From: an uncultured delta proteobacterium | GTDB taxonomy: Bacteria; Myxococcota_A; UBA9160; SZUA-336 | Assembly: GCA_963704165.1 (NCBI GenBank) | Contig: CAVPHD010000003.1 | Location: forward strand, 480,001 to 544,000 | Reading direction: 5' to 3' | Length of the DNA stretch: 64,000 nucleotides | Shown: piece by piece, positions 7,538 through 10,500 of the stretch | How the letters are laid out: the number at the start of each line of letters is the position of its first letter | How positions within the stretch are numbered: position 1 is the first letter of the stretch | The notes under the pieces: model-generated | Seen by the model: only the letters and a program-made list of their open reading frames with translations | Told to the model about the DNA's origin: nothing | Databases searched by the model: none | Position numbers and translations under genes: made by a program

Positions 7538-10500
7538 GGCTGGCCCGTCATCGAGCGCCAGGCGATCCGCGCGCCGAACGCAGCGGTGCCCACCACGCGA
7601 TAGGCCTGACCGTAGGGCCCCAACTTGAACGGGTCGCTCCATGCGATCCGAATCCACGTGCGATCGGCTGCGTTGTCACAGCCCCCAGCGCACAATCCGT
7701 CGTGCTCGAATCCCGCCTCGTCGAGCACACTCTCGAGCCTCTCATTGCTCGTCTGTCCACGACCCCAGAACACTCCATTCTGCAGCCCGTAGCGGGGCAC
7801 CAGAGTTCCTCTGATCAGGCGCCCAGCCGCCTCACCCATACCGGACACGTCGCCGTTCACGGATCGATCGATCAGCATTCCGAGGCTCATGAAAGGATGG
7901 ATGACGAGCTGCGAGTAGATCGCCAGTGTAGCCGCCTGGAGATCCGTCAGAATGACTTTCCCCAAGCTGGCGACGACTCGCGGCAGCTTCCGAATGCCGC
8001 CGGGCGCCGGGACACGGGTGACTCCGACCGCGGGCCCGGGCGCGAAGCCGAAGATGAACGGAGTTTCGGCGCTCGGCTCGGGCGTCGTCTGCAGCACGCC
8101 GGACTGAAGCGTCGCCGTGCTCCAAGCCCCGTAGCTCACGCCGTTCCAGATCAACATTCCCGTCGGATCGGTGGCGCTCGTCGGCCGGTTCTGCACGTAG
8201 GAGTACGGATTCAGACCGGGTGCGTCGAAGTCCTGCACCACTTCATCCGGCGAGATGAACCGGTTCCACCTCGCGTCGTAGAAGCGCGCTCCGTAGTCGT
8301 AGAGCCCGCCGGCCTCGTCGTCCTGCGGCTGACCGGTGAATCGGTGTGCGACCGAATAGGCTCCCGCGTGCGCGATCGACTCGCCGAACGGCGCGTAGTC
8401 GCGGGTCTCGACGACGATACCGTCACGATTCACCGACGCTCGGATCGCGCCGAGGTGGTCGGTGAGATGCGCGAGGATCGGCTCCGCGTGGCGTCCGAAT
8501 CTTCCGGGGCCGGATGTCGGTCCCGGTGTGACGGGTGTCGTCGCCAGGCTCGCGACGCGCACGCCGCCGATCGAGAAGTGCTTGTTCGCGCGCTGCGCGC
8601 CGACGTCGTACTCGAAGTCGCCACCGACCGAGACGATCGAGGTCGCAGCACCGCTCGGTCCGGTCGACGTCAGCGTCAGGTCGCCGAAGACGTCGTAGCC
8701 GTAGGTCGAGCGCCGATGGCGGTGGAGCTTGCCCTGCGTGTTCCAGATCAACGTGTCGCGACCGTATCCCGAGCCGAAGTCGATCTGCGCGACCTCGCCG
8801 CCGAGCGTGGAGCCGATCGCCTCCCACTGCTCGCCCGCCTCGACGAACTCCGTCAGGACGCGCGGCTTGCTCGCGTGGAAGTAGCCCCAGGTGCGGTGGT
8901 CACCGCCGAAGCTCTCGGGACGACTGCTCACCTGCCGGCGCAGATTCCCGAGCGCGTCGTAGCGGTACGTCCAGGTGACGGGCTCTGCGGCGTCGCGCGC
9001 CTTCTCCCAGGAGCCGGTCGCGGTCACGAGGCGAGAGAGCCCGTCGTACCCATAGCTGCGATTCACGGGCTCGGCGCCGATCACACCGCTCTGTGTGACC
9101 AGGCGGCCGAGGCCGTCGAAGACGAGGTCGAGATCGATCGGCGCGCTCGACGGCAGATTCGAAGGCGTCGTCGCCCGGCAACGCTGCAGGTCGCCCACCC
9201 CGTGCCAGAGCGCGGTCAGGACCGCGACGAAGTCGTAGGGATCGCAGGATCCGCCACCGTCGACGTCGCAGAGATCCTCGCGAACGAGCGGGTCGTCGCC
9301 AAAGTCGTGCATCAGGATCGCGAAGCCATCCGCGAGCGTGACTCTTCCGCTTCCGTCGACGTCGCCGCACTGGCAGCCGTCCCCGATTCCGTCGGGGCCA
9401 CTGGCGTCGCCGAGCCCGCCGCGATCGAGCTGATCCGGATCGTAGGCGTTGGGGCAGACGTCGCTCGACGTCGCGACCCGATCCGCGTCCGGGTCGTCCG
9501 AGAGCAGGTTGCCCGGCGTCGCGCGGACACGAGAGAGCCGCGCGCTCGTCGGATCGTAGCCGTAGGTCTGCACCGCGAGCGCCGCGCCGCCCGCGCGCTG
9601 GCCGATCTCGAGCGACGTGATGCGACCGAGCGCGTCGTAGTCGGCGTCGCGGACGACCACGCCCGTGAATGCCGGATTCGCGGGGTCGGCGCGGATCTCG
9701 CGCAGACGCACGCCATCGTAGGCGAACTCGAACGCGTCGCCGTCGGGGAAGACCCGGCGCTTCACGCGATCGAGCGCGTCGTACTCCCAGCTGGATTCGA
9801 ACTCGAGACCGTCCGTGCGCTGGACGACGGAGCTCCGGCGGCCGGCCTCGTCGTACCCGTACAGGTAGCTCGTCGACGAGGGCTCGGCGGCCATCACGCC
9901 GATCAGCTGTCCGAAGGACGAGAGCGACGCGTCGGTCCCGTAGACGAAGCTCGCGTTCGCGACGCCCATTCCAGCCGGAGAGAAGCTCTTCGCGCGGAGC
10001 CGCCCGAGCGGATCGTAGCTGCGCCGTTCGCTGCGGGCCTCGCTCGTCCCGGCGTTCTGAACCCGCGCGACGAGCCGTCCCGCGTCGTCGTGGTCGAAGC
10101 GCCAGATGCCCGAATCCGGGTCGTCGATCCGAACGCGTCGCCCGAGCGTGTCCCAGAAGATCTCGGTGACGTGGTCCTGCGCCGCGCAGGCCGGCCCCAT
10201 CTCGAGCGACGCGCAGAGCGACGGATCGTTCGCGATCGGATCTCGGACTTCGTAGAGCCGGTCGGCGGCGTCGTACTTCGCCGAGACGACGTGGGGATCG
10301 GACAGGGTCACGGCATCCGGATGGCTCGCGACCCGGACCCACCGTCCCAATCCGTCGCTCATGCGCTCCGTTCGCTCCACGCGATCGCCCGCGGACGGCG
10401 GTCCGAAGTACGTCTCCTCGATCGTCGTCCACGGCGCGTAGCTCCAAGCGTGTCGGGTGGTCGCATCCGGGTCGAGGACGAGCTTCGGCCGTCCCAGGGC

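Follow-up and report, generated by a model that had tools for sequence, protein, structure and literature searches.

We analysed a 64,000-nucleotide window of an uncultured delta proteobacterium (contig CAVPHD010000003.1, positions 480,001 to 544,000) together with the genome it comes from (G000; only 84% complete), and found that the RHS/YD shell of a single-chain TcB-TcC-like polymorphic toxin is interrupted by a 121-residue insert. The host gene is an open reading frame (ORF) of 2,221 amino acids (aa) at 7534..14199 and the insert (aa 1562-1682) lies at 9154..9516; both, like every window feature named below, are on the (-) strand. Judged on its predicted structure, the insert is a TSP3 repeat joined to a dockerin fold, with six invariant cysteines, and it is real, conserved and optional. 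We refer to its module family as type A. Fold-level homology to dockerins, conservation, presence or absence among homologues and loss of basic residues at the binding face are demonstrated here. From these sequences, the insert may be an outward docking handle whose face has been re-specified for a toxin-specific partner, a reading that we consider plausible but short of probable.

Fold, conservation and history of the insert

The first-pass annotation of the window described a TSP3 plus dockerin insert of about 120 residues between YD repeats at 9150-9510. All the motifs it quoted are present, at the slightly different boundaries given above, which were set by comparison with P0013, a homologue that lacks the insert. 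The insert begins after the strand that follows a YDPTSARL turn and ends before the strand that precedes an FDGLGRL turn, with one YD repeat directly before it (9520..9570) and another directly after it (9100..9138). Its TSP3-like part, a family-level assignment, occupies 9370..9498 (aa 1568-1610), while the dockerin-fold part, comprising two calcium-loop/helix repeats, occupies 9178..9369 (aa 1611-1674).

Modelled in isolation, the insert reached a pLDDT (predicted local distance difference test) of 96.1 and folds as a dockerin, as the annotation had expected. The best structural match was dockerin 4dh2_D (Z 9.5, root-mean-square deviation 1.8 Å, 66 residues), and dockerins accounted for all of the top 10 matches. 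Foldseek also favoured dockerins, but with weak E-values (0.02-3). The duplicated calcium-loop/helix pattern is present, with helices H57-67 and H89-101 and invariant loop aspartates. This fold is shared with the cellulosomal type I dockerins (PF00404; 4DH2 and 2CCL, Z 8.8-9.5), from which the insert differs in its fused TSP3 part, its six invariant cysteines, its internal position and its non-basic residues at positions 17/18. The setting also differs, with no recognised cohesin in the genus.

The same identity emerges at the level of the family. A 62-row alignment of the module showed the six cysteines and the calcium-loop aspartates to be invariant and, at E ≤ 0.01, contained Dockerin_1 in 55 rows and TSP_3 in 56. 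Positions 3-45 of the module profile matched thrombospondin (E 1e-17) and positions 47-103 matched solved dockerins (best E 1e-8 to 4e-7); the nearest atlas clusters of the insert were Dockerin/TSP3. The window copy itself scored 12.6 bits against Dockerin_1 (PF00404), under the Pfam cut-off of 22.9, and gave no TSP_3 (PF02412) match at E ≤ 0.01. Orthologous RHS inserts fall on both sides of the PF00404 cut-off: over it in P0007, P0010, P0011, L014 and L016, and under it in P0003, P0004, P0005, P0008, P0012, L012, L013 and L015.

A survey of RHS homologues, which the annotation had suggested, recovered the insert repeatedly. There were 24 matches to the region, two of them bearing the source names Myxococcota and Deltaproteobacteria; 19 shell homologues (P0002-P0020) were aligned and the more distant P0021-P0025 were left out. 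The insert is present at the same site in 11 of the 19 and is therefore not a chance occurrence; a short loop takes its place in the other 8. Identity among carriers was 0.63 for the TSP3 part and 0.53 for the dockerin part, with 0.58-0.61 for the flanking shell. All 6 pairs compared (four genomes) gave a ratio of non-synonymous to synonymous substitution (dN/dS) of about 0.23-0.42 over the insert, indicating purifying selection. RHS inserts keep their calcium-loop aspartates as well as all six cysteines, and GC content by codon position is the same in the insert as in the rest of the host gene.

Presence and absence of the insert cost three changes on a quick shell tree built with the insert excluded. 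The insert-less P0013 is sister to the insert-bearing P0010 (SH-aLRT 96), and the RHS modules group together, though weakly (support 72). The simplest reading of these trees, though not a proven one, is a single gain followed by losses. Genome G058 contains an insert-less RHS gene and, divergently oriented beside it at a contig end, an RHS fragment that bears the insert (L174:7529-8063; G058:C136). Fragment and gene are 85-90% identical in DNA over the flanks, and the fragment may be an orphan allele or an assembly artefact.

Module carriers and the binding face

A search for further carriers, likewise proposed in the annotation, identified 11 type-A carriers in G000: seven with the module at the C-terminus, two with it near the N-terminus, one with it between domains, and the RHS protein. 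Carriers in G000 and its relatives include S8 and M35 peptidases, a GDSL hydrolase, a CotH kinase, LamG and CAP proteins. A 301-residue query (insert plus flanks) found matches in 80 of 201 class genomes and, in a sample of the phylum, in 10 of 151 genomes, all of them inside the class. The module is C-terminal, at the stop codon, in 34 of the 40 top-scoring class copies fetched; this and the seven of 11 in G000 agree with the annotation's statement that dockerins are usually terminal. Across the class, the module serves to tag secreted proteins. ORF 152-4267 of the window, which the annotation took for a bearer of the same module, proved to carry a different subtype, denoted type B. Its C-terminal TSP3 repeats and type-B dockerin-like module (155..640) gave a weak match to the type-A profile, mostly via TSP3, and type-B modules are found on six ORFs in G000.

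In the class, dockerins have been fused to RHS/YD shells on at least three separate occasions, the insert being one of them. In a second RHS family, with three copies in G000, a two-helix hydrophobic hairpin, a third type of dockerin (type C) and TSP3-like repeats stand just before the core, an arrangement found in 23 of 25 loci and 21 of 23 matching genomes. The type-C dockerin retains Arg in its second repeat and mostly in its first, and its profile matched only RHS ORFs (three) in G000. Genome G002 encodes a teneurin-like YD protein (L166:3-5825 (-), G002:C63) with an Arg-bearing type-A module right after the signal peptide. With three separate fusions, there is a case that this lineage gains from carrying dockerins on RHS/YD shells. 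At G000:C1:687033-692674 (L004, L005, L083, L106), three tandem RHS-core cassettes carry the type-C dockerin and TSP3-like repeats and differ in their tails; the cassettes look like an orphan-module array.

The RHS copies are set apart at the binding face. Partner recognition by dockerins is ascribed to positions 10/11, 17/18 and 22, position 17 being Arg or Lys (PMC3413522). The two repeats of the window insert have Leu-Met and Leu-Thr at positions 17/18. Neither repeat has Arg or Lys there in any of the 11 RHS copies, as opposed to 56 of 56 non-RHS alignment rows and all 10 sibling carriers in G000 (the second repeat of one sibling was read by eye). The basic residues are mostly replaced by hydrophobic ones (Leu/Met/Phe/Trp/Ala-type), and aromatic residues are more numerous, at 2-10 in 71 residues of the RHS copies compared with 1.7 on average. 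Since the 11 RHS copies are kin, the loss may be a single event.

Six free type-A copies in another genome, G001 (L168-L172), also lack the Arg and have a symmetric Leu-Leu code in near-identical repeats. They form a clade separate from the RHS modules, and neither a Pfam cohesin nor a type-B socket was found in G001. Going by the sequences in that genome, an Arg-less code can be a genome-wide norm, and the loss of Arg therefore points to a changed code and not necessarily to a dead domain. Two ideas are not supported: that every type-A module needs the Arg, in view of the six G001 copies, and that the RHS module derives from the G001 lineage, in view of the separate clades.

Candidate sockets, orientation and rival readings

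The cohesin search that the annotation had called for gave a mixed outcome: no Pfam cohesin over the cut-off in G000, and one weak PEP-CTERM candidate that is linked to type B. Sub-cut-off Pfam matches in G000 were rejected, as the best of them sits in an ORF of other appearance, which we take to be an FAD-linked oxidase, and the other has an E-value of 1.7. Across the class, Pfam cohesins occur in 18 of 201 genomes, mostly as single small proteins and many with PEP-CTERM tails; two class cohesin proteins are fused to dockerin-like tails. A class cohesin profile built from 12 cohesins had no match in G000. A tandem-repeat screen of 1,060 filtered ORFs returned 45 proteins and, judged by spacing only, no obvious array of cohesin-sized units of 130-150 residues. 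A scan of named genomes gave no matches.

The candidate socket (G000:C4:284001-284708) lies between two type-B genes (G000:C4:280980-285936, L108). It and its relatives adjoin type-B genes in eight genomes of the genus, one of 136 relatives in the library is fused to type B (P0107), and no locus at which the socket profile scored has a type-A neighbour. Its cohesin leads are weak: an atlas score of 0.85, a cluster that is 24% Cohesin, and an E-value of 0.0017 on the class cohesin profile for one of 121 relatives. HHalign and PDB profiles were negative for cohesin, and Pfam matched 0 of 32 and 0 of 115 members. Four genomes that have the RHS protein with its insert also encode the candidate socket (G000, G014, G016 and G058). 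A second, frameshifted copy of it lies at G000:C3:340-1282.

In relatives, PEP-CTERM genes stand beside type-A genes at eight loci (L024, L025, L139, L157, L158, L165, L167 and L177). Because PEP-CTERM genes are common in these genomes, such adjacency is a weak indication. The PEP-CTERM protein at L177 had no Pfam match but scored E 6.7e-6 on the class cohesin profile. The relatives' type-A-linked PEP-CTERM proteins had no match in G000 and no Pfam family, and two of them used as queries found no match in five genomes with the RHS protein and insert, in a search without a positive control. An exosortase is encoded in G000. Sockets for the type-A tag family plausibly exist. Two further observations concern these neighbours: the type-A-adjacent PEP-CTERM genes at L024, L025, L158, L165, L167 and L177 belong to at least three unrelated-looking families, and a weak Pfam cohesin match at G094:C115:13109-13792 (L018, G094:C9 family) adjoins a type-A module within one 299-residue frame.

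The insert very probably faces outward. The turn that holds it is of the same class as the one at which many homologues carry a hydrophobic hairpin before the core (see below), a site that must lie outside if the hairpin spans a membrane. Four domains inserted into the shell of the mosquito protein SGS1 lie outside (PMC9935623, in the part available). The cargo enclosed by insert-bearing shells is not shorter, with a mean of 217 aa against 189 aa without the insert (p 0.26). The available portions of shell-structure papers yielded no inside or outside assignment of RHS turns.

We propose that the insert was captured from a tag widespread among the secreted proteins of this lineage and that it serves as an optional, calcium-dependent handle, likely on the exterior of the shell. 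A signal peptide would route the toxin through Sec; the module would fold independently, binding Ca2+ and forming three disulfides, as the shell closes round the cargo; and the core would cleave the cargo at DPTG. The exposed hydrophobic helix pair would then engage a socket resembling a cohesin, probably a PEP-CTERM protein sorted by exosortase, and so keep the loaded capsule on the surface of the producer or of the target until contact. Beyond this, the class might possess a Gram-negative, cellulosome-like display with orthogonal dockerin codes, exosortase-anchored sockets and a channel for RHS toxins, in which loaded capsules plugged onto the cell act as a contact weapon, a display route that belongs to none of the named secretion systems; this wider picture is doubtful and less likely than the handle itself.

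Several results weigh against a docking handle. Neither G000, which is only 84% complete, nor any of the 11 further genomes in the genus has a Pfam cohesin scoring over the cut-off; G018 and G036, both of which have the RHS protein with its insert, gave no match to the type-B-linked socket family; and no socket among the candidates found is tied to the RHS copy. The two repeats of the RHS copy are asymmetric at positions 10/11 (LA vs PY), unlike those of the G001 copies, and P0013, which nests among carriers without an insert, marks the insert as dispensable. In a model of the shell (aa 1030-2014; pLDDT 75), whose TM-score was best for fused TcdB2-TccC3 (TMq 0.61-0.65), the flanking strands reached a pLDDT of 82-92 and the insert about 32-53, as would be expected for a domain that folds separately when the alignment is shallow.

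Alternatively, the insert may have no protein partner in trans, its helix face having turned hydrophobic after capture because it packs on the shell or touches a membrane, as a calcium-dependent stabiliser or contact patch. The exchange of basic for hydrophobic residues in all 11 RHS copies, the added aromatics and the failure of any socket to track the insert fit this explanation, as does the presence of the insert in all three shells without the pre-core hairpin (P0002, P0003 and P0008), an association that amounts to about two independent events and is not significant. Yet the shell model, from a shallow alignment, gave no confident packed position for the insert, and in G001 Arg-less hydrophobic codes occur on free terminal copies that have no shell to pack on; we regard packing or membrane contact as somewhat unlikely. 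The annotation's own proposal was a cell-surface scaffold on which the toxin docks with other tagged proteins such as 152-4267. It is favoured by the true dockerin fold, on the 11 type-A and six type-B carriers in the genome, on the PEP-CTERM candidate with its weak cohesin lead and on the cohesin binding of clostridial dockerin-bearing Rhs proteins (PMC6780208, in the part available). The proposal is not supported. ORF 152-4267 is type B; the candidate socket, of unproven cohesin homology, is syntenic with type B and had no type-A neighbour at the loci where it scored; and the RHS copies lack (0 of 11) the basic residues that the siblings keep (10 of 10), making a shared scaffold improbable.

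An insert turned to the lumen, acting on the cargo as a chaperone or a plug, could use its hydrophobic face to bind unfolded cargo. The non-DxxG hairpin of RHS repeats, the class that holds the insert, is reported to point inward in a TcB-TcC structure, which speaks for a luminal insert and against an outward one. We give the luminal reading little credence, since shells with the insert have cargo of unchanged length, carriers differ freely in the type of cargo, homologues bear a membrane hairpin in the same turn class and the domains inserted in SGS1 lie outside (PMC9935623, in the part available). Least likely of all is a neutral passenger, an abundant mobile tag in a tolerant loop that is kept only since it must stay folded. 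The module is indeed multi-copy and mobile, its absence from P0013 is clean, and G058 pairs an insert-less gene with a fragment that bears the insert; but conservation near that of the shell, dN/dS below 0.5, a shift of all RHS copies in the same direction at the binding face and at least three recruitments of dockerins to RHS/YD shells speak against it.

Known systems and the host gene

The host resembles the TcdB/TcaC-type toxins (Zhang et al. 2012, PMC3482391) in architecture, variable cargo and a downstream candidate immunity gene. The available part of that paper mentions no dockerin, cohesin or thrombospondin, whereas the present shell is interrupted by a dockerin module. Dockerin and Rhs repeats are likewise joined in one secreted chain in the ScaO/ScaP2 scaffoldins of Clostridium alkalicellulosi and Acetivibrio cellulolyticus (PMC6780208, PMC3413522), and the type II dockerin of ScaP2 binds cell-surface cohesins (PMC6780208). 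These proteins differ in belonging to a Gram-positive cellulosome with cohesins present and in having the dockerin precede the Rhs region; toxin display is not described in the portions of the two papers at hand. SGS1 (PDB 8FJP; PMC9935623) is similar in that whole domains are inserted into the repeats of a Tc-like Rhs/YD shell, and according to the available text these are displayed outside as putative receptor domains. That protein is eukaryotic, and its inserts have propeller, carbohydrate-binding-module, lectin and wedge folds, with no dockerin among them.

Outside cellulosomes, dockerin and TSP3 modules are used in the 'planctosome' (PMC6461901) and in the dockerin-type giant proteins of Omnitrophota (bioRxiv 10.1101/2023.11.21.568195), and some PT-TG toxins have dockerin or cohesin domains (PMC13483458). 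In these non-cellulosomal systems, as far as the available texts go, dockerins are on secreted peptidases, adhesins or toxins, their function is hypothetical, and none is described inside an RHS shell, unlike here. A published description of that arrangement was not found in the full-text literature, in a search that mostly did not reach subscription journals and did not include supplements. In calling the display route undescribed, the annotation goes somewhat too far: in the sources as available, the combination was not found in print, while dockerin-bearing Rhs proteins (PMC6780208) and outward domains inserted into a shell (PMC9935623) have both been published.

How Sec-exported single-chain TcB-TcC-like toxins are delivered to their targets is poorly defined, and this becomes a testable question through an optional 121-residue handle that some close homologues have and others naturally lack. 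With three subtypes and candidate PEP-CTERM sockets, the class also offers an entry to the function of non-cellulosomal dockerins. If the handle merely packs on the shell, the finding is a tidy domain insertion into an RHS loop.

From its N-terminus, the host ORF comprises a signal-peptide-like segment (called by eye), SpvB, an FG-GAP propeller, TcdB_midN, the RHS/YD shell, the core and a variable C-terminal cargo, with Pfam matches to SpvB, FG-GAP, TcdB_toxin_midN and RHS repeats. SpvB, the FG-GAP propeller, RHS repeats and a DPxG core thus stand on one chain, as in TcdB/TcaC-type toxins. The C-termini of homologues are unrelated (for example, DUF4258 in P0004), as expected of variable cargo. 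A TcA partner was sought with PF18276, which matched neither here nor in the control genomes. The RHS-associated core (8158..8469) ends in DPTG (aa 2011-2014), a predicted self-cleavage site by the role ascribed to the DPxG-type core motif (PMC8765631, in the part available). Beyond it lie 207 aa of cargo (7537..8157), with no Pfam or PDB match. A segment of the cargo at 7690-7794 (-) has what we take to be a phospholipase-A2-like motif; by eye, the motif is common to 8 of the 11 insert-bearing homologues. The overlapping downstream gene (7034..7537) has a lipoprotein-like signal and no Pfam match, and its product is a candidate immunity protein.

A second insertion-prone loop (8449..8550) lies before the core, at the position where the second RHS family carries its hairpin and type-C dockerin. 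There, 16 of the 19 aligned shell homologues (P0004-P0007 and P0009-P0020) have a hydrophobic two-helix hairpin with a basic loop, which ends in a signal-peptidase-like Ala-x-Ala and is likely a membrane anchor. In the window protein, P0003 and P0008, most or all of this hairpin is missing.

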